Shown: positions 29,893 to 42,789 of the stretch, one piece after another
How positions within the stretch are numbered: position 1 is the stretch's first letter
Layout: each line of letters opens with the position of its first letter
Source of the DNA: Alphaproteobacteria bacterium
Lineage (GTDB): Bacteria; Pseudomonadota; Alphaproteobacteria; GCA-2731375
Direction of reading: 5' to 3'
NCBI GenBank assembly: GCA_965232515.1
Contig: CBDDPY010000002.1
Location: 5,632,001-5,696,000, forward strand
DNA: 64,000 bases
Notes under the pieces: model-generated
What the model was told of the DNA's origin: nothing
Database searches by the model: none
What the model saw: only the letters and a program-made list of their open reading frames with translations
Translations under genes and position numbers: made by a program

Positions 29893-30232
29893 TGTTGCCG
29901 TCGTGGTTGCCTCACGCCTTACCGCGAAGCTTTTTTGCAAGCTCGACTACACGTAGATAGCCATAGCATAACGCGTCTGGATGCTGTTCGAGTAGGTTTG
30001 AGCAGTATGGCGCCGCGAACACATGAGGAGTTAGGCATTCCTCGAAGATCACACCATGGACCAAATAACGAGCTAGTTCGGAGTTTTTACACAAGGTTTT
30101 TTTGAAGAAACAAAGCTCAAGGATTGCTTAATGCTTTCTCTTTCGCTCCTGCGCAAATTTATCATTGGAAAGCTACAACACGGGTTGCATGTGGGTTACG
30201 CTGTTTGAGCCGTCAGCGCCTCATCGGAGAAT

Positions 30233-30556
30233 TTGGAAATGGTCGATAAGCCGCAAGAGCACTCAGAGTTCGAAGTTGTAATAGAAGTTTCAGCAGAAAT
30301 CGTTTCGGTACGTAAGTACGAGAAAATCGAACCCGCAGGCGAGTTTGGTCCATATAACGTAGACAAAAGCTCAGAACCTTGGGTTCTATCAGTTCCAAAT
30401 CGAAGAACAATCCGTCTGCACACTTCTCCGTATTACAGACCTTATAGTGACTTTTGGACAAGCCCTCAAACTCGTTTTGAAATCCACAGCGGCCAATGGG
30501 TGGAGGGATATCAAAATAATGCTTGGACGCTATTGACCGATGCCGACCACCGATGA
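30233..30556 (+). CDS. Hypothetical protein, possibly the remnant of a longer gene
   Basis: 107-aa ORF in a low-GC region; broken open frames upstream. Confidence 0.35.
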   Translation: MEMVDKPQEHSEFEVVIEVSAEIVSVRKYEKIEPAGEFGPYNVDKSSEPWVLSVPNRRTIRLHTSPYYRPYSDFWTSPQTRFEIHSGQWVEGYQNNAWTLLTDADHR

Positions 30557-30621
30557 GAGCCTTCCTTAACTAGATCTGTTGGATATGTGCTTGATAGACA
30601 CGGAGCGATCGTTGGCGTTTG

Positions 30622-32554
30622 CTAACGCCATGGCCTTGATCGCGAGCACGATGCAAGTAGGCTGAATTTTTGAAACAGAATTGACCTTGTCATGCCAATT
30701 GGCCTGTGGAGCACTTGTTCCGTCAAGGTCGATATTCTCCGCTTTGAAAGTTCTTCTTCAAATAAGGCCCATAGGAAACATGCTTGAAGTCGGTTCTGAA
30801 TATCCATATCAGTTTTGACATCTTTTTCTCTCGTTAACGACATGAACGAGAATATCATTTTGGAGATTGAAGTACTAGCATTTTGATTTGCGTACTTCCG
30901 CGCCAACGATACGGCATACACTGAAGCCATAAATCGACTACCCGGCAATTCATAGTTTTCAATGCCAGAAATTATTTTATCCAAAATCAACTTGCCTTCG
31001 AGCACTAACCCGTTCCGAAAAGCAACATTCGCGTAATCGTAAAATAGTCCAGTAAAATGATCATCTATGTTCGTCTCTTCTTCTAATTTTAAATTCAATT
31101 CATCTATTCCCATTTTGAGATAGAGCTCTCCCAAATTCGCGTCTCCTTTAAGAAAACTTTGATCAGCAGCCAAAAGTAAAGCTCGAGCCTTCAAATCCGT
31201 ATCTTCCATAACTTCTCCAATAACGCGAACCGCTTCCGGATGGCCAAGTTTGGAAAGAATGTATGAGATTTTCCAATAGATAATGTCGATATCGGAATTA
31301 TCCTTTACCATCTGCCAGACTGCATTATCAAGTCTCCCAGTCGCCAAGAGAAGACCAGCAAGCGCTTCTTCGACCATATCTCTATCAACTCGACCATCTA
31401 CGCTTCCAAATAATGTAGCACTTTCTCTATCGTCTCCTTTCCAAGCAAAAACGCGAGCTCTAAGTTGCAAATATCTATTTCTAACTCTTGTATCGGCGCA
31501 TTGACTATCCCGTACCCGCGCGAAAACCTCACTGACCTTTAACGCTAGGTCGAATTCTCCGATTGCTAATAGGCTTGCAGAAATCTTCTCCAGTGAATGA
31601 TAACTTATTCGCCGGCAGTTCTCCGGAATGTGATTGAGAAGATCATGTACTACTCTAATAGCGAGCTCCTTGTGACCGTGAGCTGCTGCAATGGTAATCA
31701 TCGATTCGGCCGCGGGGCTAGGATATGAGACGTCACCGTCACCACCAACGTCTTTGTAAATCTCGTACATCAAGTCAATACCTGCGTCCGAAATGTGCCT
31801 TCCATGGTGATTGCGTTGTGGCAAACCGCTCAGAAAGCCGAGCTTAGAAGTTTTGTCTTTTGTTTTGATGAATTCAAATGCAGATTTAAAACCATCAGCC
31901 TCGACAATTCGATCGGTCAACACTATATAATTTACTGTTCCAGATTCGCGCTCACTTATTTCTTTGTTCAATTCATCGTACTTTCCATTGGAAGCATATA
32001 TTTCCATCAAGACATCTGTTATGAATCGCTTTTCTTTCTTTTCATTAGTTTCCCTCCTTATCCGTATTAAATCTTGGGTTTTAGAACTAGAAAACAATGC
32101 ATTATGCAAATCCGATGCATGAGTATTTCGCAATCTTGCATAGAAAAAAGCCAAATCTATCTCGCCCATTTCAGCGAAAGCCACGGATATTTTTCGAAAT
32201 TTTCTCCCTTCAATTTTGTAAATTCTTGGAGAATACATCATTTCTGCAGATATTTTGTTTTTGTATCGGCTCAGATCAAGATTAGATGATTTTAGCAGAT
32301 TGTAGCTTGACGAAAGCAATTCGATTTTTTTTTGCAAACCAATCCTTCTCAACTAAGACATCATTTTCGTTCATAAAAAAGGGACCATAGTTTGTTTTCA
32401 TAACGGTATCGAAGTAAGCGGCTACGGCACACATCCGATCTGGAGCTTTGAGGCACTGAAATGTGTAAGATTCTGACCCAGCATGAGGAACAAGAAACGT
32501 GTTCAATAGGAAAAAAATTGGAAGAAAAAGATAGTGCTTTATTTTTGTTGTCAT
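30622..32554 (-). pseudogene. Exported helical-repeat (TPR-like) protein split by a frameshift in an A9 run
   Basis: Signal-peptide ORF 32282-32554 (GGAG RBS) and 576-aa ORF 30622-32352 overlap across T9 at 32325-32333. Confidence 0.72.
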
Positions 32555-33118
32555 GATGTCTCCTTTTGACCTAAGCGGGTCAATCCGATACGGGATCTCG
32601 GCGATGAAGTGTCTGGGAATGACGACTTTTGTTGGATAACGAGATCCTTAAAGGGTATTTCGTTGGATAAATTGTTGCTCGGTTCTGCAGGCGTCGCAAC
32701 CAACTTCTAAACCCAAGATTGCCGAATCATGCAGAACTCGCATTTTGTAGAATAGATTGATTGTCCAAGATGGCAGTTGTCATTATCGGACTAATCCCGA
32801 TTCAGCCGACAGATATTAGGGCTGTTTCCTTGCAGCTTGCGACAGGCCTTACACCGCAGCTTTGTTAGGCTCGATTACCCGCGTATAACCCCGCCAGCGG
32901 CGACCAAAGTTATCGGGATGTAATACCGTTCGGTTTCAGCGTTTAACACACACGGCCTCAAAGCGATCGCACTAGCCGAGGTCTTCCAGCCAGACCGCAT
33001 AACGGCTGTCGATGGAGATGTTCTTTATATGTTGCATTCAGGCCGACGATAAGAAAACCGGTACGAGAGGCCAGTGGGTCTTACGCGGACCGGCCCTTTC
33101 CGGGGAAGCTTTGGGGCC

Positions 33119-33430
33119 ATGTGGAACCTCTACAGCCTGACGACCAATCAGGAAGCCATCAGGCGGTTTTTTGAAACGCAACGCGAAGAGGACGGTAACC
33201 TACCGCTTTTCCCGGCTGTCTTTCCGGGAAACGATGCGCCGGCTGTCCGGCTTGCAGAGGATCAGGCCGGCGAGCCGGCGATGATGAGTTGGGAGTTTGT
33301 GCTGCTCCAGCAGGGCAAAACGCCGAAGAGCGTGACCACAAGCTCACGACAAAAAGATTGCAGCCAGCCCATTCTGAAGATTATCCGTCGCCAGCTGCCG
33401 CCGCCTATTTTTTTGATCCGGCGTGCGTAA
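33119..33430 (+). pseudogene. Truncated SOS response-associated peptidase (SRAP/YedK) remnant
   Basis: MWNLYS (normally MCNLYS; catalytic Cys replaced by Trp), GNLP..P.VFP..AP.VR, M.W.F; similarity ends after ~75 aa. Confidence 0.75.
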
Positions 33431-33514
33431 TCAAAAATCGGCAATAACGTCTAGAATTACCCAAAACTTTTAGTCAATATCAATTGTTCCCTTCAACAAC
33501 GAGGCAGAGTTCTG

Positions 33515-34195
33515 ATGTCCATGTCCGGCGATCATGAGGACTTGCTTATGGAAGAGGCGCGTCTCCGTCACTTGGAATTCGAGGAATTTTTGTCAGACTT
33601 CAGATATTTTAGAACCAACTATGCAGAATTTTTGAAGCCTTTGGAAGAATTACAGAAACAATACTATAAGTCACAACACAATCAATCTGAAAGATACAAT
33701 CTAAAATCTGCAATGCGGCTAAGTCGCCCGATTAATAGAAAAAGCAGCTCTGTAGAATCAGATCTTCTCCGACGCGCAGGAAATGCTTTAAGGAAAAAGA
33801 TGAATGAACGAAGACCATACAATGACGGTGCCTATTTGGAGAATGGCCCTAATGCCATTCAAATGGAAAAGTACATGGAGGAATTTTCTAGTGAATACTG
33901 GAAGGAATTTGCCCTAAAATTGGGCATTGGCGGTAACAAATATGGTGTGATAATTGGCTTGGGAATCTATGTTTTTCTTCATAGTGAAACGGGTAAAGAA
34001 TTTATGGGAAATACATATGGAAAACTTGGATATAAAATGGGTTGGGTAATTGATAATAGATCCGTTATTTATACTAAAATCAGATATGAATACTCAGAAT
34101 CTATTCAGGAAATCTATGGTACTGCCGATTTTATTTTAAGAAATGCTGATTTTGTTTTCTTGCCATACGGCCCGAGCATCTACAGTTCTTACTGA
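33515..34195 (+). CDS. Hypothetical protein (low GC)
   Basis: 226-aa ORF with GAGG RBS. Confidence 0.7.
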   Translation: MSMSGDHEDLLMEEARLRHLEFEEFLSDFRYFRTNYAEFLKPLEELQKQYYKSQHNQSERYNLKSAMRLSRPINRKSSSVESDLLRRAGNALRKKMNERRPYNDGAYLENGPNAIQMEKYMEEFSSEYWKEFALKLGIGGNKYGVIIGLGIYVFLHSETGKEFMGNTYGKLGYKMGWVIDNRSVIYTKIRYEYSESIQEIYGTADFILRNADFVFLPYGPSIYSSY

Positions 34196-34228
34196 AAATT
34201 CTAAATCAAGTAAATTGGGGGAGTTCTG

Positions 34229-35824
34229 ATGCCAAAAGACTCAAAAACGAAAATTGATGAAACAAATCGAGATTGGCGATTATTGATCAATGAATTCACC
34301 AAATCTTACCAGATTCCGAAAGAAATTGATGATATAATAAAAGGAGAATTCTCGAATAAATTACTTGAACGGCTTGATGTCGACTTCGATTCGTTACCAA
34401 ATGCGGATTACGAGAAATATTCTCCACTTCATTTCGAGCCGTTGCTTGAAGAAGCGATAGAATTATTGGATGGGTGCGCTGCGATTAGAAGTTCTTGGAA
34501 CGAAAATGCAATACAATTAGCCGATTTTATGACGGAGATATTGGAATTCATAAGTAAGGATGTTGTTCAGTCGAAAGAAAGCGATGCTGGATTTTATCGA
34601 CTGAAAGTAGATGAAATTAGATACAAATTTGATTCTGAAAGTGAATTTATTGCTCGGTCTGAAGAAGCATTAACAACTTTGACTGCAAATTTGGACAACA
34701 ATTGGAGTCGCGAAGCGATAGCGGAACAGAAATTAGTGGCAAGCTTGAATGCAGAGGTTTCGTCTAAGGAATTGCATGAAGCGGGCAGTCATAGAAATTA
34801 TGTACAACACGAAACGGAACTTCTTGGTAAAAAAACCAAGCCACAGCATGTCCGGCGATATCAGGAAATCATGTCCGAGCACAGATTAAAGGTCGAACAT
34901 GCTTCGCTAAAGTCGAGAATTCGCTCTTTGGAGGGTGCCATTAGTTCTGCTGCAAAAAGGCGTGATGGCTATGAACAACAGTTATTATATGCTGAAAACG
35001 AGATGAATTTTTTGAGAAGAAGGTACGAGATTGACAAGCGATTGATACAGTTGAAGATGAAAATGCTACTTCAAAAGAACGGTATCGTGAATTACCCAGC
35101 AAGGAAAGCGAGAATGAAGGAGATTTTTGAAAATGATTTTTTGAAATCAATTCAGAAGCTTTTATCTGTTGCAGTCGGAATGAAAGAGATGATGGGATAC
35201 CAAAACGGTTTTCCCAAAAGCGGAAAAGGTAGTTTTTTTGATGAGTGCGAAAAATGGGCAGATGATGCACTGGAGTATTTGAGAATACAATCAAGAGCGG
35301 ATCAGTTATTAGTGTTGCCTATTTCATTGCGCTCATACGAGCAGGATAAATTTAATGCGGGTCGACGGAAAGGCATTTGGGAATTTACGGTGTTTGATGA
35401 AGAAGAACGCGGTACCAACGCCTATCAAAATTCATTGGCCAAATTTCTGAAAAACTTCTGGTGCGTTCGGCTAAGGGGCATGAGTGCGTATGTAAATCTT
35501 TCAAATGGTGGAACCGGCGCCACAGATGCTTGGCAGCTATTGGTTAGGCTACCTGCCAAAGGCTACGTTCGCAGAAAAGATGGGACTCTAGTCAATCTCA
35601 CTGGGCAAGATTGGTTGCCGCCAGTATCTATCGGCAGAGCGATGGGTAGTTATCGTGATTTCGTACCCGACAAGACAGGTGTAAAAGTTTTGCACAATGC
35701 AAGCCCGTTTGGAAAGTGGCGAGTAGAGTTAGCTGATCGATCAACGCACAACAGAACATTGGACAAGGTCGAAGATCTTCAACTAGACCTCCATCTGATT
35801 GTGCAGGCTACATCCCAACCATGA
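34229..35824 (+). CDS. Hypothetical protein: long coiled coil plus C-terminal beta-rich domain
   Basis: 531 aa, GGGGAG RBS; ends SPFGKWRVEL..LDKVEDLQLDLHL. Confidence 0.78.
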   Translation: MPKDSKTKIDETNRDWRLLINEFTKSYQIPKEIDDIIKGEFSNKLLERLDVDFDSLPNADYEKYSPLHFEPLLEEAIELLDGCAAIRSSWNENAIQLADFMTEILEFISKDVVQSKESDAGFYRLKVDEIRYKFDSESEFIARSEEALTTLTANLDNNWSREAIAEQKLVASLNAEVSSKELHEAGSHRNYVQHETELLGKKTKPQHVRRYQEIMSEHRLKVEHASLKSRIRSLEGAISSAAKRRDGYEQQLLYAENEMNFLRRRYEIDKRLIQLKMKMLLQKNGIVNYPARKARMKEIFENDFLKSIQKLLSVAVGMKEMMGYQNGFPKSGKGSFFDECEKWADDALEYLRIQSRADQLLVLPISLRSYEQDKFNAGRRKGIWEFTVFDEEERGTNAYQNSLAKFLKNFWCVRLRGMSAYVNLSNGGTGATDAWQLLVRLPAKGYVRRKDGTLVNLTGQDWLPPVSIGRAMGSYRDFVPDKTGVKVLHNASPFGKWRVELADRSTHNRTLDKVEDLQLDLHLIVQATSQP

Positions 35825-36376
35825 CAACCACAAACCGATACCCTAGAGATCAGCTTGCAGCATAGAATTCCACTCATCAAACGTCTCAAACAAACGGTTC
35901 GAACTTTCTCCTCCAAGGCGCACCGTCGGGCACTCCATGAATAGGTTCGAGTCCTTGCCTGTCGTCGTGTTTACGCTATGCGCAAGATGTCCCCTGTGTA
36001 TTACGGGGGCATCTTGGCAAGGGAAACCCCTTCGGTTTCCCGTTGCATCCCTTCCCGCCGTGGCGCTTTCAGGCATCGAGCCTTCTTGCGCCAATTCAGC
36101 GTATCGCCGCTTACCACTCGCAGGACGTTTGGCCGCCTGCACCCACCATTCAGGGAGACTTCGCTCTCCCCGAAACCCCATCGACCAGGCGTATGCCGCC
36201 ATGGACCAGCACCAAGGTTTCGCCCTTGGAGGCGACCAACCCTGTGCGGATTGGATGCGCGTCAGCGTTTAGGCTCTGCCCTTCAAGGAGCACCTCTGGA
36301 TACAATTGGTTGTGCATGAAAGCAATTTTCTCTCTTTTTGTTAGAGAAATGTGTATCCACCGGTTACACTACCTGC

Positions 36377-36598
36377 TTGGCAGACAAGGACGTAGGGCTT
36401 CGCATCCGGGTACAGCGAGACCTCCGCGAACGCTTCGCGGAGATTTGCCGTGACCAGGACAAACCCGTCGCGCAGGTAATCCGCGAGTTTATGCGCGAAT
36501 ATGTTGCACGCCACGCCTTAGGACTTGTCGAGCAGCTAGAAGCCCGGCCAAGCACGGAGCATGCCCGGAAAGAGACGGCGAGCAGAGAGCGGGGTTAA
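36377..36598 (+). CDS. Ribbon-helix-helix DNA-binding protein
   Basis: DVGLRIRVQRDLRERFAEIC..QDKPVAQVIREFMREYV; TTG start. Confidence 0.75.
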   Translation: MADKDVGLRIRVQRDLRERFAEICRDQDKPVAQVIREFMREYVARHALGLVEQLEARPSTEHARKETASRERG

Positions 36599-36772
36599 CA
36601 ACAACACTAGAGGAGAGTTTTGCCTCAGACCGCTGCGAGAGTTCGGAACGCCAGCTCGTTCGTGTGGTCCATCGCGCAAATCCCTCGCAGCGGGCTTGCA
36701 ATGGTCGAGCAAGGCAAGGGATCAACACCGTTTCACATACTCGCGCAGCTTTTTCCCGGAGGTGCCTGAGCT

Positions 36773-38275
36773 ATGCCTACACCAATCACAGCCTCAATGC
36801 TCTACGATTTGGTCTCATGCCCGCATCGGGTGACCATGGACATCTTTGCCGATCCGGCTGAACGCGACGCGCCAAACGCGTTTGTCGAACTTCTGTGGGA
36901 GAAGGGTTCGATCTACGAGAAGGAGGTCATTGAAGGGCTGGAAGTGCCCCTCACCGATCTCTCCATGTACGCCGGTGACGAAAAAGAGCGGCTAACTCTT
37001 GAGGCCATGGTGCGAGGTGACCCGCTGATTTACGGTGCCCGTATCCAGGCCGAAGGTTTGCTTGGAGATCCCGATCTACTTCGCAATGAGGGTTACGGCT
37101 ATATCGCCGGTGACATCAAATCTGGATCGGGCGAAGAGGGTCCTGAGGACCATTCAAAGCCCAAGAAGCACTATGCTGTGCAACTCGGCCTCTACACAGA
37201 CATTCTGGAACGTAAGGGCCTTTCTGCCGGTAAGCGCGCGTTTATCTGGGATATCAATGGTGACGAGGTCACCTACGATTTCACGGAGCTTCACGGCAAG
37301 AGGAACCCGCGCACGCTCTGGCAAGATTATCAGGACTGCCTTTCTGAAGCAGATGAAATTGTCGAACAGTCCACGGAGACGCTTGCCGCCTACAGTGGCA
37401 TCTGCAAGCTCTGCCACTGGTACAGCGCTTGCGTCTCGCGCTTGAGCGAAGCAAACGATCTTACCTTGATCCCTGAGCTAGGCCGGTCGAAACGCGACGT
37501 ATTGCGGGACCGCGTCAAAACTATCCGAGAGCTCGCGGACGCCGATCCCTGTGATTTTCTGGATGGCAAGAAAACGGTCTTTCCCGGAATTGGTCCTGCC
37601 ACTCTGGAGAAGCTTCATGCCCGCGCGAAGCTGATTACTTCCGGGAAAAAGGCAAAGCCCTACCTACGTGAGCCCGTAACGCTGCCAGTTGCTGACCTGG
37701 AGCTATACTTCGATATCGAAGTCGATCCTATGCGGGACATCTGTTACCTGCACGGCTTTGTTGAGCGGCAAGACGGTAACAACGATTCAGAGCGATTTGT
37801 TGCCTTTTTTGCGGAGGAGCCATCCGAAGAGGCCGAAAAGAAGGCTTTCCAGGATGCTTGGCGCTACATGCAGGAGAGCCAGCCTTGCGTGATTTATTAC
37901 TACTCAAAATATGAGCGAACGATCTATCGAAAGCTTCGTGAGAAATATCCCGATGTTTGTACTGAAGACCAGCTAGAGGCTCTGTTTGATCCCAATCGAG
38001 CCATAGACCTGTATTTTGACGTGGTGCTCAAGGCTACGGAGTGGCCTACACGAGATTTCTCTATCAAGACGCTCGCGAAATATCTTGGTTTTGACTGGCG
38101 CGACACACACCCGTCCGGTGCGGCTTCCATTGAATGGTTTCATAGATGGGTAGAAACGGGCGATACGACGATCCGCCAACGTATTCTTGACTACAACGAA
38201 GATGATTGCCGTGCGACGCGCGTTCTGCGCGACGCCATCGACGGCCTTGCCCGAATGCCGGAGGAGGCCGCATGA
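36773..38275 (+). CDS. TM0106-family RecB/Cas4-like nuclease with C-terminal RNase H-like domain
   Basis: SCPH, GDPDLL, DIKSG, QLGLY, CKLCHW..C, HhH-like GIGP, YFDIE, YNEDDC. Confidence 0.9.
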   Translation: MPTPITASMLYDLVSCPHRVTMDIFADPAERDAPNAFVELLWEKGSIYEKEVIEGLEVPLTDLSMYAGDEKERLTLEAMVRGDPLIYGARIQAEGLLGDPDLLRNEGYGYIAGDIKSGSGEEGPEDHSKPKKHYAVQLGLYTDILERKGLSAGKRAFIWDINGDEVTYDFTELHGKRNPRTLWQDYQDCLSEADEIVEQSTETLAAYSGICKLCHWYSACVSRLSEANDLTLIPELGRSKRDVLRDRVKTIRELADADPCDFLDGKKTVFPGIGPATLEKLHARAKLITSGKKAKPYLREPVTLPVADLELYFDIEVDPMRDICYLHGFVERQDGNNDSERFVAFFAEEPSEEAEKKAFQDAWRYMQESQPCVIYYYSKYERTIYRKLREKYPDVCTEDQLEALFDPNRAIDLYFDVVLKATEWPTRDFSIKTLAKYLGFDWRDTHPSGAASIEWFHRWVETGDTTIRQRILDYNEDDCRATRVLRDAIDGLARMPEEAA

Positions 38276-39504
38276 CCAACTCGCAGCCCAAGCAGGATGC
38301 ACAAAAGACGCTCTCAGACCTGAGGGATCATCTCGCCCGCCACGACAAACCAATAGCATTCTTTTTCGGTGCGGGAACCTCCTGCGCGGTTAGGGTCCCC
38401 CACCCGGTTGATAAAGACAAGACGCTGCCGTTGATACCTGCCGTCGCTGGACTGACAAAGATTTGCCAAGAAGAAGCGAGTGGGTTAGGCGAGAAATACA
38501 AAAATGCCTGGACCTCGATTGAGACCAATTGCAAGGAAATCGGGCAAGACCCGAACGTCGAAAACATACTCTCTCGCCTGCGCATGATGCTGAGTGCCGT
38601 CGGTAACACCGATACCTTGTCCGGCCTGAAGAGAGATGAGATTGAAACACTTGAGGAGTCTGTTCGGAAGACAATAGCGAAGGTTGTCACGCCTGACCTG
38701 GACGTTGTTCCGAATGACCATCCCCACCGGAAGTTTGCGCGATGGCTTGCAAAAACATCACGCCAGAACCCGGTCGAGATATTTACCGTGAACTATGATG
38801 TGCTCATTGAGCACGCTCTTGAGGCTGAACGCATTCCAGTTTTTGACGGCTTCGTCGGCAGCTATCAACCCTTTTTTCACTCCGATAGCCTTCGCAGGCT
38901 TGAATCTGCGCCTGGTGTTAACTGGACTCGGCTCTGGAAGATGCATGGCTCTGTCACTTGGCGTCGTATTGAGAAAGACAACCGCTTTCGTGTTGTGAGG
39001 GGCGAACCCGACACGGGCGGAGAAATGATTTATCCATCGTTTGAGAAATACGATGAGTCTCGCCAGCAGCCATATTCCGCCTTTACAGACCGCTTGAGCC
39101 GCTTCCTCGAGCAAGATGATGCACTTCTGATCGTCGCCGGCTTTAGCTTTGGCGACGAACACATAAACAACCTTGTTTTTGGAGCCCTGGAAAACAGGCT
39201 AAGGACACACGTCTACGCCCTTCAGTTTGATGAGCTGCCGGACGATAACGACCTGATCAAGCGTGCGGTCCAGCGGCCAAACATGATTGTGATGGGACCT
39301 AAGACCGGAATTATTGGCGGTCGTCGCGGAGCATGGGCACCTGTCGAAAGCCCGGAATCCATGGGAGTCGCGTTCGAGTTAATAGACTTTGATGCCGCGG
39401 AAGAAAGCGAGGGAGGAGGAGGTGAAGACGCCAAGTCGGGCTTAATGAAGATCGGTGGCTTTGGCTCATTCTGCGATTTTCTTGAATCTATGACAGCGAG
39501 CTAG
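38272..39504 (+). CDS. SIR2-like NADase domain protein
   Basis: FFFGAGTS, FTVNYD, KMHGS, GFSFGDEHIN; ATGA overlap with the TM0106 gene. Confidence 0.92.
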   Translation: MTNSQPKQDAQKTLSDLRDHLARHDKPIAFFFGAGTSCAVRVPHPVDKDKTLPLIPAVAGLTKICQEEASGLGEKYKNAWTSIETNCKEIGQDPNVENILSRLRMMLSAVGNTDTLSGLKRDEIETLEESVRKTIAKVVTPDLDVVPNDHPHRKFARWLAKTSRQNPVEIFTVNYDVLIEHALEAERIPVFDGFVGSYQPFFHSDSLRRLESAPGVNWTRLWKMHGSVTWRRIEKDNRFRVVRGEPDTGGEMIYPSFEKYDESRQQPYSAFTDRLSRFLEQDDALLIVAGFSFGDEHINNLVFGALENRLRTHVYALQFDELPDDNDLIKRAVQRPNMIVMGPKTGIIGGRRGAWAPVESPESMGVAFELIDFDAAEESEGGGGEDAKSGLMKIGGFGSFCDFLESMTAS

Positions 39505-39510
39505 ACCACT

Positions 39511-41382
39511 ATGCCGCTCGCTGACCCTACATATATTGGCCAAGTCGCTTCCGTCACGGGGGCCGTTGTCCGCGTACGTCTTCGTGAGGACATGCCGTCA
39601 ACGCTGGTCATGATCGGCGGTGAATCCTATCGTGTGGGACAGATTGGCGGATTCTTCCGCGTCCCTCTTGGTTACGCCAACCTCTACGCAGTTTGCACTC
39701 AAATCGGCGCAGACGCCGCCCCTCCCGGCAGCGCTGAGGAAACTTTCGGAGCAGCACTGGAAACCGAGACCCAGGCGCGCCTCTCGGGCTTTCGCTGGAT
39801 GACGATTGTCTTATTTGGCGAAGGACTTGGCACCGAATTTGAGCGCGGCGTCGGTCAATATCCGACCGTTGGGGACGAAGTGCACCTTGTCACCAATGAT
39901 GACCTCAAGATCATCTATGGCTGGGCGAAAGGAAAAAAAGGCACGATCTCTGTCGGGCAGATAGCTGCCACATCAGGCATATCAGCCGATGTCAGTGTAG
40001 CCGGACTTGTCAGCCGCCACAGCGCGATCGTTGGTTCTACCGGTGCAGGCAAATCGAACCTCGTCACCGTTCTCATGGAAACGGTTTCTGATGGAAGCCT
40101 GCCCAACGCCCGTGCGATCGTGATTGATCCTCACGGGGAGTACGCGACTGCACTAGGCGATAGAGCAAGAGTGTTTCGTATCAGGCCCGACGAAAAAGCA
40201 GGAGAAAGACCATTATGGGTCCCATTTTGGGCGCTGCCCTTTTCGGAACTTCAGCTGCTTACACTTGGCGGACTCCAACCCAACCACGAAGCTGCGATAC
40301 GCGATCAAGTCCTCGACATGAAGACGGCGGCTGCCGAGCGCCTAGCTATTCCTCCACCGCCTGAGACACTTACAGCGGACTCGCCCGTTCCGTTCAGCAT
40401 CAACAAGCTCTGGTACGACCTTGACTGCTTCGAACGTGTTACGTTTCGAGCAACTGGCAATCAGCAGACAGAGGATCAGGCCTACCCACCAGACGAAGTT
40501 GGGGACGCCAGTCAACTCAGACCTGACCGTTATCCCGCTGCTAGTCCCTATAACGAGGCTCCTTACAAGAACCAGCGAAAGCGGAACCTTGAACGCCACC
40601 TAGACTTGATGCGGAGCAGATTGAAGGACAGCCGGTTTTCCTTCCTTTTTTCACCCGGCGGTGGTTATGAGCCCAATCTGAATGGTGAAATACAAAACGA
40701 TCTGGATGCATTGGTTCGAGAATGGGTTGGCCACGAAAAGCCGATAACAATTTTTGATGTTTCGGGACTTCCGTCCGAAGTGCTCCCGACAATTGTCGGC
40801 ACCATGCTTCGCGTGGTTTACGACACGTTGTTCTGGGCACAGGATTTGCCGATAGGCGGACGGCAGCAGCCGCTCCTTGTCGTTCTAGACGAAGCCCACC
40901 GCTTTGTTCCAGAAGGGGAGGATTCTTCCGCTCATCGCACCCTGTCCACGATTGCGAAAGAAGGCCGTAAATACGGGACAGGCCTCATGTTCGTGACGCA
41001 GCGGCCGTCCGAAATTGATAGCGCCGTGTTGAGCCAGTGCGGTTCACTTATTGCTTTGCGGATAACCAACTCATCAGATCGTAGCAAGGTCAGCGCCGCA
41101 ATACCGGATGACCTTGGCGGGCTAATTGAGCAGCTACCCTCGTTACGAACTGGGGAAGGAATCTTTCTCGGTGAAGTTATGCCTATCCCTTCGCGCGTGC
41201 GGGTGCGCAAGGCGACGGAAAAGCCTGTTGGAGATGACCCCAAACTTCCTGACGTATGGCAAGTGGAAGAACGCCCTGACGGGGGCCTCTACTCCCGTGC
41301 TCTGGCGAACTGGCGTGCGCAATCTACATCCGTGCAGATGGAGAAAAATGGAAACGAAGGGGAGGAACCTGACAATGCCTGA
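39511..41382 (+). CDS. HerA/FtsK-like ATPase (DUF87)
   Basis: HAS barrel, GSTGAGKS, IDPHGEY, LDEAHRF, KEGRKYG, TQRPSE. Confidence 0.93.
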   Translation: MPLADPTYIGQVASVTGAVVRVRLREDMPSTLVMIGGESYRVGQIGGFFRVPLGYANLYAVCTQIGADAAPPGSAEETFGAALETETQARLSGFRWMTIVLFGEGLGTEFERGVGQYPTVGDEVHLVTNDDLKIIYGWAKGKKGTISVGQIAATSGISADVSVAGLVSRHSAIVGSTGAGKSNLVTVLMETVSDGSLPNARAIVIDPHGEYATALGDRARVFRIRPDEKAGERPLWVPFWALPFSELQLLTLGGLQPNHEAAIRDQVLDMKTAAAERLAIPPPPETLTADSPVPFSINKLWYDLDCFERVTFRATGNQQTEDQAYPPDEVGDASQLRPDRYPAASPYNEAPYKNQRKRNLERHLDLMRSRLKDSRFSFLFSPGGGYEPNLNGEIQNDLDALVREWVGHEKPITIFDVSGLPSEVLPTIVGTMLRVVYDTLFWAQDLPIGGRQQPLLVVLDEAHRFVPEGEDSSAHRTLSTIAKEGRKYGTGLMFVTQRPSEIDSAVLSQCGSLIALRITNSSDRSKVSAAIPDDLGGLIEQLPSLRTGEGIFLGEVMPIPSRVRVRKATEKPVGDDPKLPDVWQVEERPDGGLYSRALANWRAQSTSVQMEKNGNEGEEPDNA

Positions 41383-41590
41383 AATGCATTTGGTTGACTC
41401 ATCAAATATTGAAGCCATCGGTTTTGATCCTGACAATCAGGAACTACATGTGCGGTTTCTGAAGTCGGGTGAAACTTACGTTTACTACGGCGTTGAGGAC
41501 TGGGTTTTTCAGGAATTTTTGCAAGCAGATTCCAAAGGTACTTATCTCAACACCAACATTAAAGACCGCTACCAGTACGGTAAGCTGTGA
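41375..41590 (+). CDS. KTSC domain protein
   Basis: VDSSNIEAIGFD..LHVRF..G.TY.YYGV..F..ADSKGTYLN..IK; 71 aa, GGAGG RBS, overlaps the HerA stop. Confidence 0.9.
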   Translation: MPEMHLVDSSNIEAIGFDPDNQELHVRFLKSGETYVYYGVEDWVFQEFLQADSKGTYLNTNIKDRYQYGKL

Positions 41591-41653
41591 ACCAAAGTCT
41601 GTAAGCTCGTTTTCGTGCGTCCGACATGGCTGTACCCGGTTCTGCTAGCCCGC

Positions 41654-42706
41654 TTACGTCCTTGCATACCAAGTCCCTTTCCTCTTGCCATGCTGGGAAA
41701 GATGATTGGCACTCACCAGTGTTTGCAGGTGTTTCTTGACCGTGTTGCGGTTCGCGCCGGTGGCGGTGACGATCTGGCCGATCGTGATTTTTCCGTGCGC
41801 CCTCGCCAGTTCGAGGATTTCAAGCGACAGGTCCGGCAGGCTATCGACCATAATCCGCTCGCGCTCGATTTTCCGGGCCAACCGGTTTTTTTGCTCTTGC
41901 AAGGCGCGCAGGAAATACGCAACCCACGGCTCCCATTCGGGTCTATCGCTGCGGATGGTGCCTTGCGTCTGCCGTAGGGCGAGGTAGTACCCCTCCTTGG
42001 TCTGCTCGATCACGCTTTCCAGCGAGCTATAAGGCACATAGCCATAGCCGCAACGCAGCAGGAGCAGCGTTGTTAAAATGCGCGACAGCCTGCCGTTGCC
42101 GTCCTGAAACGGGTGGATTTCCAAAAAAACTACCGTAAACACAGCGATCACGAGCAGCGGGTGCAGGCGGCCTTCTGCCAGTGCGGTACGGGTCCAGTCC
42201 ACGAGCTCAGCCATAAGCCGGGGCGTATCGAACGGTGTGGCGGTTTCAAACACCACTCCAATCTCCTTTCCGACGTCATCAATAGCGGTGACATGATTGG
42301 TGGTGGTTTTGTATGCGCCGCGGTGTCGTTCGTCCTTGGCGCTGTGGATGAGCAGATCGCGGTGCAGTTGCAGGATATGGTTTTCGGTTATCTCGATTGC
42401 TTCGGCACTTGCGAAAACCGTTTCCATGACTTCCGCATACCCGGCCACTTCCTGTTCGTCGCGTGTCTCGAACGCCTTGATTTCGAGGTTAGATAAAAGC
42501 CGCTCAACTTCGCGGTCGGACAGCTTGCTTCCCTCGATCCGCGTGGAGGATCCGATACTTTCGATGGTGGCGACCCGGCGCAGCGCTGACAGCCGCTCAG
42601 GGGCCAGCGTGCCGAGGGCCTTCCATGCGCCCTTGAACTCGTCCAGCTCGGCAATGAGGGAGAGGATTTCAGGGGTGATCGTCAAGGTATCGGTGTTTAA
42701 GCTCAT
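41654..42706 (-). CDS. Fic family protein with C-terminal winged HTH
   Basis: Canonical HPFQDGNGRLSR motif, inhibitory-type STRIEG, C-terminal HTH. Confidence 0.93.
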   Translation of the reverse strand: MSLNTDTLTITPEILSLIAELDEFKGAWKALGTLAPERLSALRRVATIESIGSSTRIEGSKLSDREVERLLSNLEIKAFETRDEQEVAGYAEVMETVFASAEAIEITENHILQLHRDLLIHSAKDERHRGAYKTTTNHVTAIDDVGKEIGVVFETATPFDTPRLMAELVDWTRTALAEGRLHPLLVIAVFTVVFLEIHPFQDGNGRLSRILTTLLLLRCGYGYVPYSSLESVIEQTKEGYYLALRQTQGTIRSDRPEWEPWVAYFLRALQEQKNRLARKIERERIMVDSLPDLSLEILELARAHGKITIGQIVTATGANRNTVKKHLQTLVSANHLSQHGKRKGTWYART

Positions 42707-42789
42707 ACCCAAAAATATACCCAAAAATATCCATAAATTCAAGATTCGGGGCCTGATACCCGAAAATACACCCATAAATATCCAAAAAC
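42705..42789. repeat. Two triplets of 10-12-bp direct repeats at the fic start
   Basis: ATACCCAAAAAT ATACCCAAAAAT ATCCATAAAT and ATACCCGAAAAT ACACCCATAAAT ATCCAAAAAC. Confidence 0.75.

Follow-up and report, generated by a model that had tools for sequence, protein, structure and literature searches.

What is an anti-phage SIR2-HerA pair doing between a dual-nuclease gene and a 71-aa KTSC gene, and how many working parts does such a locus have? The question is raised by a cluster of co-directional genes in a 64,000-nt stretch of DNA from an Alphaproteobacteria bacterium (GCA_965232515.1, contig CBDDPY010000002.1, 5,632,001-5,696,000, forward strand; the whole analyzed stretch is called the window, and coordinates are counted within it unless another locus is named). 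An original prediction, made from the letters of the window, had read the cluster as a SIR2-HerA operon preceded by an RHH gene and extended by a TM0106-type nuclease and a KTSC protein. The answer that we favor, with moderate confidence, is that the locus encodes a Paenibacillus-type SIR2-HerA abortive-infection system on a mobilisable island, in which the KTSC part of HerA is split off and TM0106 is an integrated accessory with a NurA-like role.

Organization of the gene cluster

The genes in question and the junction between the first two members of the module are as follows.

36377..36598 (alternative TTG start at 36338), + strand: RHH gene (Pfam RHH_9 1.1e-5, RHH_1 0.0025)
36773..38275, + strand: TM0106 gene, 500 aa (NCBIfam TIGR03491 1.6e-71; Pfam RNase_H_2 1e-27)
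38272-38275, + strand: ATGA in which the TM0106 stop and the SIR2 start overlap (read from the sequence)
38272..39504, + strand: SIR2 gene, 410 aa (PADLOC SIR2 PDLC04093 3.9e-144)
39511..41382, + strand: HerA gene, 623 aa (PADLOC HerA PDLC04105 3.7e-155)
41375..41590, + strand: KTSC gene, 71 aa (Pfam KTSC 7.1e-23)

The arrangement is the one that the original prediction had described, with all genes on the + strand and with an ATGA overlap, a 6-nt gap and an 8-nt overlap at the successive junctions. Just 5' of the ATGA the sequence reads GGAGGAGG (38261-38268), and the Shine-Dalgarno sequence for this overlap is located within the TM0106 gene; the SIR2-HerA spacer occupies 39505-39510, between two genes of the same strand, and HerA and KTSC share the letters ATGCCTGA (41375-41382). 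The TM0106 gene starts 174 nt 3' of the RHH stop. A scan for promoters and terminators over 35800-42000 gave 2 and 6 sites versus shuffled means of 2.8 and 6.8, and, with counts so near those of shuffled sequence, the boundaries of the operon are drawn from gene spacing only. The catalytic motifs that had been described as apparently intact are in place in all three enzymes, namely the N/D/H residues of SIR2, the Walker A and B motifs of HerA and both nuclease sites of TM0106.

A SIR2-HerA pair of the Paenibacillus type

As judged by alignment, the two central genes are clear homologues of the SIR2-HerA pair of Paenibacillus sp. 453MF, the system to which the data-availability section of PMC11472057 assigns the structures 8W9L, 8WIV and 8WLD, and they keep its catalytic motifs. 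SIR2 matches PDB 8w9l (E 3.5e-63) and HerA matches 8wiv (E 3e-144, with query residues 6-606 covering 11-605 of the 696-aa chain), so that homology runs over nearly the full length of both and includes the N/D/H and Walker motifs. In SIR2, the residues N174, D176 and H225 do not vary among 20 homologues and lie in FT(V/T)NYD and (M/L)HGS stretches aligned to 8w9l, whose catalytic residues are given as N163, D165 and H212 in the available text of PMC11472057. HerA carries a Walker A motif (GSTGAGKS, 175-182) and a Walker B motif (VVLDEAH, 457-463), and matches Pfam DUF87 (3.4e-30) and HerA_C (1.2e-8). SIR2 and HerA genes that are adjacent and co-directional, the arrangement by which a SIR2-HerA system is recognized, were found here, and together with the PADLOC matches and the homology to the Paenibacillus system they bear out the predicted SIR2-HerA defence operon. 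By score, the pair falls outside the equivalog families for which the NCBIfam antiphage models (NF042942, NF042943 and NF042944) were built, with 78.7 against a cut-off of 500 for SIR2_antiphage, 222.5 against 850 for HerA_antiphage_2 and 163.9 against 800 for HerA_antiphage.

In the accessible text of PMC11472057 the Paenibacillus pair, whose KTSC is fused to HerA, is studied as a system of two genes that acts against phage, and SIR2 and HerA form a large complex in which NADase, ATPase, helicase and nuclease activities are combined. In the type III SIR2-HerA system of E. coli, according to the part of PMC13434337 available, phage proteins and DNA ends gate the use of ATP and release the NADase. 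The SIR2-HerA/Nezha system of E. coli (8J4U, 8SU9) and the Sir2-HerA system of S. aureus (8YHO, 8YHX) share with the Paenibacillus type a HerA hexamer that activates a SIR2 NADase, but are far more distant from the window proteins (SIR2 4.7e-13 and 8e-20, HerA 3.3e-30 and 1.7e-24, respectively). Against the Paenibacillus system itself, the window differs in the way in which its KTSC fold is encoded and probably also in having a TM0106 gene coupled upstream.

The KTSC protein as the tail of HerA

The 623-aa HerA ORF (open reading frame) of the window is without the terminal KTSC subdomain, and the 71-aa protein encoded directly after it matches residues 631-695 of the 696-aa Paenibacillus HerA chain 8wiv_A (E 7e-8); when the KTSC query was compared with the HerA chains of solved structures, only the Paenibacillus chain matched, and not those of E. 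coli or S. aureus. The protein scored 80.5 bits against Pfam PF13619 (gathering score 25), and its AlphaFold2 model (predicted local distance difference test, pLDDT, 96.9) fits onto HerA chains 8wld, 8wiv, 8wj3 and 8wof with TMq 0.81-0.89 and a root-mean-square deviation of 1.2-2.6 Å, and onto stand-alone KTSC structures with TM 0.94 (4rgi) and 0.92 (7x8c). In the text of PMC11472057 that is available, HerA residues 576-696 are named the C-terminal arm domain, which is said to wrap around the adjacent subunit and to keep the hexamer stable, and the word KTSC has 0 occurrences there. An arm ending in a KTSC fold is found in the window as well, supplied in trans by the 71-aa ORF; this fold stands at the C-terminal end of both HerA proteins, fused in Paenibacillus and encoded here by an ORF of its own that overlaps HerA by 8 nt. 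We conclude that the KTSC ORF is a C-terminal HerA subdomain that has been split off and is translationally coupled to the rest, and that HerA and KTSC together rebuild the 696-aa HerA. Since KTSC is a HerA subdomain, the system has three functional parts: a nuclease, SIR2 and a split HerA.

How general this split is was read from a census of related loci, for which the SIR2 alignment was run against one genome per species; 87 stretches matched, and the 58 that encode a relative are the 58 loci (numbered L001 onwards) on which all counts below are based, so that the census is built from the SIR2 side only. Genes of the relatives were called crudely, as the longest non-overlapping ORFs, and antisense ORFs in G+C-rich loci (clusters c3, c4 and c6) were ignored. 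KTSC was found 3' of HerA in 51/58 loci by tblastn and in 53/58 with the KTSC profile, which amounts to 53 of the 54 loci with a complete HerA and downstream DNA, down to SIR2 identities of ~31%. The KTSC-less loci are one in which the contig ends inside HerA (L017), three decayed SIR2 fragments with no HerA (L020, L037 and L058), and L024, where an insertion sequence (DUF772 + DDE_Tnp_1, 13077-14204) sits directly after HerA in the place of KTSC. Among 51 typed loci the two are split in 48 and fused in three (L036, L044 and L045), and the window's 8-nt overlap is kept in 22; in a 694-aa fused HerA-KTSC relative, the KTSC part is 86% identical to the window KTSC. Plasmid annotations repeat the pattern, with triplets of SIR2, ATP-binding protein and 'KTSC domain-containing protein' in Rhizobium, E. 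coli and Aeromonas.

The end of the arm domain in the solved HerA is thus a KTSC fold. Throughout a whole clade this fold is obligatory, mostly as a small protein of its own, and definitions of SIR2-HerA as a two-gene system therefore overlook a gene that is already annotated as 'KTSC domain-containing protein'. The original prediction had taken KTSC for a new fourth component that may act as a sensor, which does not hold up against a domain that is fused and ordered in the Paenibacillus complex and near-universal in the clade. It had also treated binding of single-stranded nucleic acid by KTSC as known; the parts of the literature available contain predictions, of RNA binding in PMC7824862 and of DNA binding in PMC9503650.

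TM0106 as a conserved part of the module

Upstream of SIR2, conservation is narrower and sharply delimited. Full-length TM0106 stands directly upstream of SIR2 in 17/58 loci, all of which belong to the 27 judgeable loci whose SIR2 is ≥59% identical, here called close relatives, and in 0/30 distant loci (the remaining locus, L039, comes without upstream DNA). The TM0106-SIR2-HerA-KTSC block thus recurs in 17 other genomes from several phyla, the hosts of these loci being Alpha-, Gamma- and Deltaproteobacteria, Acidobacteriota and Flavobacteriaceae. By tblastn coordinates, the end of TM0106 abuts the start of SIR2 in at least seven of the 17 relatives (L001, L004, L005, L006, L016, L022 and L034). 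By blastn, homology to the window spans 36760/36788..41551/41593, approximately from the TM0106 start codon to the KTSC stop, in 16 of the 17; the exception is L017, where the contig ends inside HerA.

Evolutionarily, TM0106 follows its neighbors. In a quick HerA tree of 49 rows, in which long branches were flagged among the distant rows and from which seven HerA loci (best segment <85% of the query, or a stop) and three loci without HerA were omitted, one starred clade of 17 rows contains 14 TM0106 rows; the TM0106 label requires five changes on this tree versus a shuffled mean of 13.1, with 0/500 shuffles as low. Distances between TM0106 proteins track those between SIR2 (Mantel r 0.88) and HerA proteins (r 0.77), with 0/5000 permutations as high (14 rows). 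Two loci without the full gene keep its 3' remnants, and absence in these is therefore a loss by deletion: in L003, 74 nt of the TM0106 3' end are kept before SIR2 (9925-10000), and in L020 a C-terminal TM0106 fragment stands beside a truncated SIR2 (9823-9990). SIR2-linked copies of TM0106 are 64-86% identical, plasmid matches to TM0106 are all <30% identical (53 records), and among the best 120 of 3190 clusters >100 are at ≥68% identity to the window protein; because of the low identity of the plasmid members and the number of close clusters, SIR2-linked TM0106 is taken as its own subfamily. Nineteen longest-contig values common to the SIR2 and TM0106 match lists, compared by eye, are an indirect hint at shared contigs. 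A structure prediction of a SIR2-TM0106 complex scored 0.28 against a mark of 0.32, a value that weighs neither for nor against a contact.

Taken together, these comparisons of loci delineate TM0106-SIR2-HerA-KTSC as a discrete four-gene module with sharp boundaries, which moves between phyla and whose genes co-diverge. The predicted extension by TM0106 is upheld, as a conserved and translationally coupled one, by the 17 of 27 close relatives, the homology block and the Mantel correlations, and the test that had been set for it, that close homologues would rarely neighbour TM0106 or KTSC, turned out the other way (17/27 for TM0106, 53/54 for KTSC).

The RHH gene, which had been noted ahead of the other genes, lies outside this conserved block. 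An RHH gene upstream of TM0106 was found by tblastn in 0/58 related loci, the small ORFs that precede TM0106 in relatives gave no Pfam family in the five scanned, and DNA homology to the relatives begins by blastn at 36760-36788, 3' of the RHH gene. Membership of RHH in the module was considered and ruled out by the 0/58 count and the start of the homology block beyond it. The gene is a local neighbour, and possibly a regulator.

Domain architecture of TM0106 and its relatives

TM0106 combines two nuclease domains, and the window protein has no fused helicase. The N-terminal domain is Cas4-like, of the PD-(D/E)xK type, and carries four Cys; the C-terminal one is an RNase H-like 3'-5' exonuclease of the DEDDy type. 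It scores 241.6 bits against TIGR03491 (cut-off 97.45), with residues 5-487 on profile positions 1-460 of 462, and its RNase_H_2 match covers residues 311-488. The motifs of the N half are C16, P100-D101, D114-I-K116, Q137xxxY141 and C211xxC214x5C220, and those of the C half D314-x-E316, D412 and Y474xxxD478. In an alignment of 16 sequences, 15 of them SIR2-linked copies and one a distant helicase-fused copy, C16, H18, D101, Q137, Y141, C211, C214, C220, D314, E316, D412, Y474 and D478 are invariant and D114-I-K116 is nearly so. The AlphaFold2 model (pLDDT 85) returned Foldseek matches to Cas4, AdnAB, Dna2, RecE, MGME1 and Exo5 for the N half, and to family-B polymerase exonuclease domains (PolB), TREX1, MrfB and the DinG exonuclease for the C half. 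Between the two domains, a helical stretch (~residues 225-305) holds two glycine-hairpin motifs, whose resemblance to helix-hairpin-helix motifs is our assumption.

A role as a CRISPR-associated Cas4 was considered and rejected, given 15.9 bits against a threshold of 65 for TIGR00372, a PADLOC Cas4 match of 1e-4 and scanned neighbours that are not cas genes; as modeled, TM0106 resembles Cas4 in fold only. PADLOC (2.0) has no model that recognises TM0106 beyond weak Cas4 matches, and a coupling of TM0106 or DUF2779 to SIR2-HerA is not in PADLOC 2.0. As far as the available text of PMC3985635 goes, COG2251/PF13482 and DUF2779 are RNase H-like 3'-5' exonucleases with a Cas4-like DUF83 domain, COG2251 often occurring with tandem AAA (helicase) domains, and section 10 of PMC13621843 reads DUF2779 likewise as Cas4-like plus RNase H-like.

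DUF2779 is also what occupies the position of TM0106 in some relatives. A DUF2779 protein adjoins SIR2 in four TM0106-less loci, with its gene co-directional with and upstream of SIR2 in L030 and L048 and divergent from it in L019 and L035; in L030 its stop falls either 4 nt past the SIR2 start or 8 nt ahead of it. These proteins have weak Cas4 and TM0106 matches, and BLASTP aligns them to the window TM0106 at E 1e-4 over the nuclease core and Cys motif. The DUF2779 protein is an analogue with the same architecture in the TM0106 slot. No other conserved gene was found upstream of SIR2 in the TM0106-less loci, where assorted restriction-modification, OLD-type, helicase, transposase and housekeeping genes stand instead.

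Larger relatives carry a helicase. L025, from a metagenome-assembled genome, encodes a 1175-aa protein of TM0106 plus superfamily 1 (SF1) helicase (13333-16860, - strand) that is convergent on KTSC, and two Rhizobium plasmids (L062, 2193-5589; L063, 1-3266) have a TM0106-helicase ~1-6 kb from SIR2-HerA-KTSC, uncoupled; in all three loci an SF1 or DEAD-box helicase is either part of the TM0106 protein or encoded after it. In the R. etli plasmid the TM0106-helicase lies among WYL, dGTPase and DUF4062 genes, and other plasmid copies (~1120-1145 aa) lie in E1/E2/multiubiquitin, WYL and BREX/TrlF contexts. Like the window protein, the TM0106/COG2251-SF1 helicase fusions and DUF2779 (PF11074) have the architecture of a Cas4-like domain plus an RNase H-like exonuclease, and the fusions in L025 and on plasmids likewise sit in defence-type contexts, but the window protein is a 500-aa, helicase-free member of its own SIR2-linked subfamily. 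TM0106 matches at E ≤ 1e-30 comprise 287 representatives, and because many of these are ~470-520 aa long, a stand-alone form exists widely.

As to novelty, no description of a coupling of TM0106 or DUF2779 to SIR2-HerA was found in the literature searched, supplements being outside the search. The claim that the combination was undescribed therefore stands for TM0106 and falls for HerA with KTSC, a coupling mentioned in one sentence of PMC9503650 (section 3.7.1), as far as its available text extends. SIR2-HerA is already known, and the structure of its KTSC part has been described, though under a different name, with a single passing mention of KTSC.

Proposed mechanism and alternative explanations

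In the reading that we favor, the core would work as published, with a HerA hexamer on a SIR2 ring, and phage cues together with DNA ends would drive the HerA ATPase and release the NADase, so that the infected cell is starved of NAD+; KTSC would complete the HerA arm in trans. For TM0106, which is without the helicase fused in most of its family, we infer a mode of action in which HerA serves as its motor, as for NurA. The nuclease would cut and resect invading DNA through its Cas4-like Fe-S domain as an endo/5'-3' nuclease and through its DEDDy domain as a 3'-5' exonuclease, and by making or trimming DNA ends and single-stranded tails it may promote HerA loading and license NAD+ depletion, while degrading phage DNA as a second effector. 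The model for this is HerA-NurA of archaea and some bacteria, which likewise encodes a HerA motor beside a nuclease and with which SIR2-HerA is compared in the discussion of PMC11472057, in the portion available. It serves as a working analogy only: the window nuclease is Cas4-like plus DEDDy, in the solved complex SIR2 occupies HerA at its N-terminal face, and no NurA family was found in Pfam, NCBIfam and PADLOC scans of the module proteins.

Several observations weigh against a TM0106 integrated in this way. The two-gene Paenibacillus system defends alone (PMC11472057, available text), so that the core function does not depend on TM0106, 10/27 close relatives are without TM0106 and it is therefore dispensable, and any contact of TM0106 with the other components is putative. 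TM0106-helicase genes also occur uncoupled ~1-6 kb from SIR2-HerA-KTSC and in unrelated defence-type contexts, and part of the association of TM0106 with SIR2-HerA could be defence-island clustering. Pressed further, these points lead to a TM0106 that is a self-sufficient defence or repair nuclease traveling beside SIR2-HerA-KTSC and acting independently or at most additively. Such hitch-hiking would account for the E1/E2/multiubiquitin, WYL and BREX/TrlF neighbourhoods of TM0106-helicase genes, the uncoupled copies 1.2-5 kb from SIR2-HerA-KTSC in the two Rhizobium plasmids, the ten close relatives that do without the gene and the wide spread of the stand-alone form. We nevertheless judge it unlikely in view of the ATGA overlap with its Shine-Dalgarno sequence inside TM0106, a homology block bounded by the TM0106 start and the KTSC stop, the co-divergence of TM0106 with SIR2 and HerA, the DUF2779 analogue in the same slot, and a SIR2-linked subfamily to which plasmid matches are <30% identical.

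The division of labor within the module could also differ from the one that we propose. TM0106 might chiefly be a sensor of phage DNA ends or replication intermediates that switches on SIR2-HerA, and not an effector; its fold matches Fe-S nucleases of the Cas4, AddB, Dna2 and Exo5 type, which are DNA-end enzymes, and DNA ends gate both ATPase and NADase in the E. coli type III system (PMC13434337, part available). However, infection must be sensed by other means in the relatives that lack TM0106 and in the two-gene system of Paenibacillus, and the invariance of both nuclease sites fits catalysis better than binding alone, which makes a pure sensor quite unlikely in our view. Even less credit can be given to a free KTSC that acts as an independent nucleic-acid sensor or adaptor and hence as a true fourth component, the view of the original prediction. 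KTSC is indeed a separate ORF in 48/51 loci, it is predicted to bind RNA or DNA in the available text of PMC7824862 and PMC9503650, and stand-alone KTSC proteins exist (PDB 4rgi and 7x8c); yet the characterised system and three loci have it as part of HerA, it is ordered in a cryo-electron microscopy model whose arm domain is given a structural role (PMC11472057, available text), and an 8-nt overlap in 22/51 loci fits one-to-one co-translation.

A bolder extension of the integrated reading, which we offer as a tentative possibility, is that TM0106 docks on SIR2-HerA-KTSC, perhaps via the freed KTSC, to form a HerA-NurA-like resection complex that cuts invading DNA, makes its own DNA-end signal for the HerA ATPase and so couples DNA destruction to NAD+ depletion. 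If so, this subtype would need no phage protein as a trigger, and SIR2-HerA systems of the KTSC type would have a general slot for a nuclease, into which the dual nuclease has repeatedly been recruited in three versions (TM0106, DUF2779 and TM0106-helicase). For the dual nucleases of the TM0106/COG2251 and DUF2779 families, so far uncharacterised, this locus provides a concrete, testable job with defined partners, and a built-in end-processing nuclease is a natural experiment on the DNA-end gating of SIR2-HerA that is described in the part of PMC13434337 available.

Genomic context of the module

The module is cargo of an integrated mobilisable element, a conclusion drawn from an end formed by a tRNA-Met gene and a serine recombinase, from coupling-protein, relaxase and MobC genes, and from a low guanine-plus-cytosine (G+C) content (0.54-0.55 in the module, ~0.67-0.69 in the host); the mobile island that had been proposed is thereby confirmed. 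The features at the left side of the island, including the rRNA operon before it, are the following.

9046-15207: rRNA operon
15390-15466, + strand: tRNA-Met, probable left end of the island
15423-17123, - strand: large serine recombinase, 566 aa, whose 3' end overlaps tRNA-Met

After the recombinase come, in order, a type IV coupling protein, a resolvase, a low-G+C insert, the module, Fic, a MobA/VirD2 relaxase and MobC. When att direct repeats were sought over 15300-46000, only short, chance-like pairs came up, and the right end of the island is set by G+C and gene content only.

The insert, at 30000-36000 within the island, has a G+C content of 0.41-0.44 and carries three ORFs; these and the Fic gene on the other side of the module are listed here.

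30622-32352, - strand: ORF without recognised family, 576 aa, low-G+C insert
33515-34195, + strand: ORF without recognised family, 226 aa, low-G+C insert
34229-35824, + strand: ORF without recognised family, 531 aa, low-G+C insert
41654-42775, - strand: SoFic-like Fic gene with a C-terminal winged-helix region (PADLOC SoFic 1.6e-49)

The low-G+C ORFs gave only a weak PADLOC AriA match (5e-4) and hypothetical or TPR-like Atlas matches, and a lenient Pfam scan of them was without a usable lead; the insert may be another defence cargo. The Fic gene is convergent with the KTSC gene at a spacer of 63 nt, which leaves no space for a downstream antitoxin ORF like AS1 as described in the available part of PMC12249575.

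Within the rRNA operon, the 23S rRNA gene (11484-14919) spans 3436 nt versus a 2925-nt model, and an ORF for a Pfam '23S rRNA-intervening sequence protein' lies inside it (12948-13322, + strand, 5.9e-31); the 23S gene thus contains an intervening sequence. Among the related loci, the flanks of L004, L005, L006 and L011 share a recurring ~930-aa N6_N4 methylase and ~710-aa UvrD-type helicase, joined in L011 by a metallophosphoesterase, a group that looks like another defence system in a shared island.

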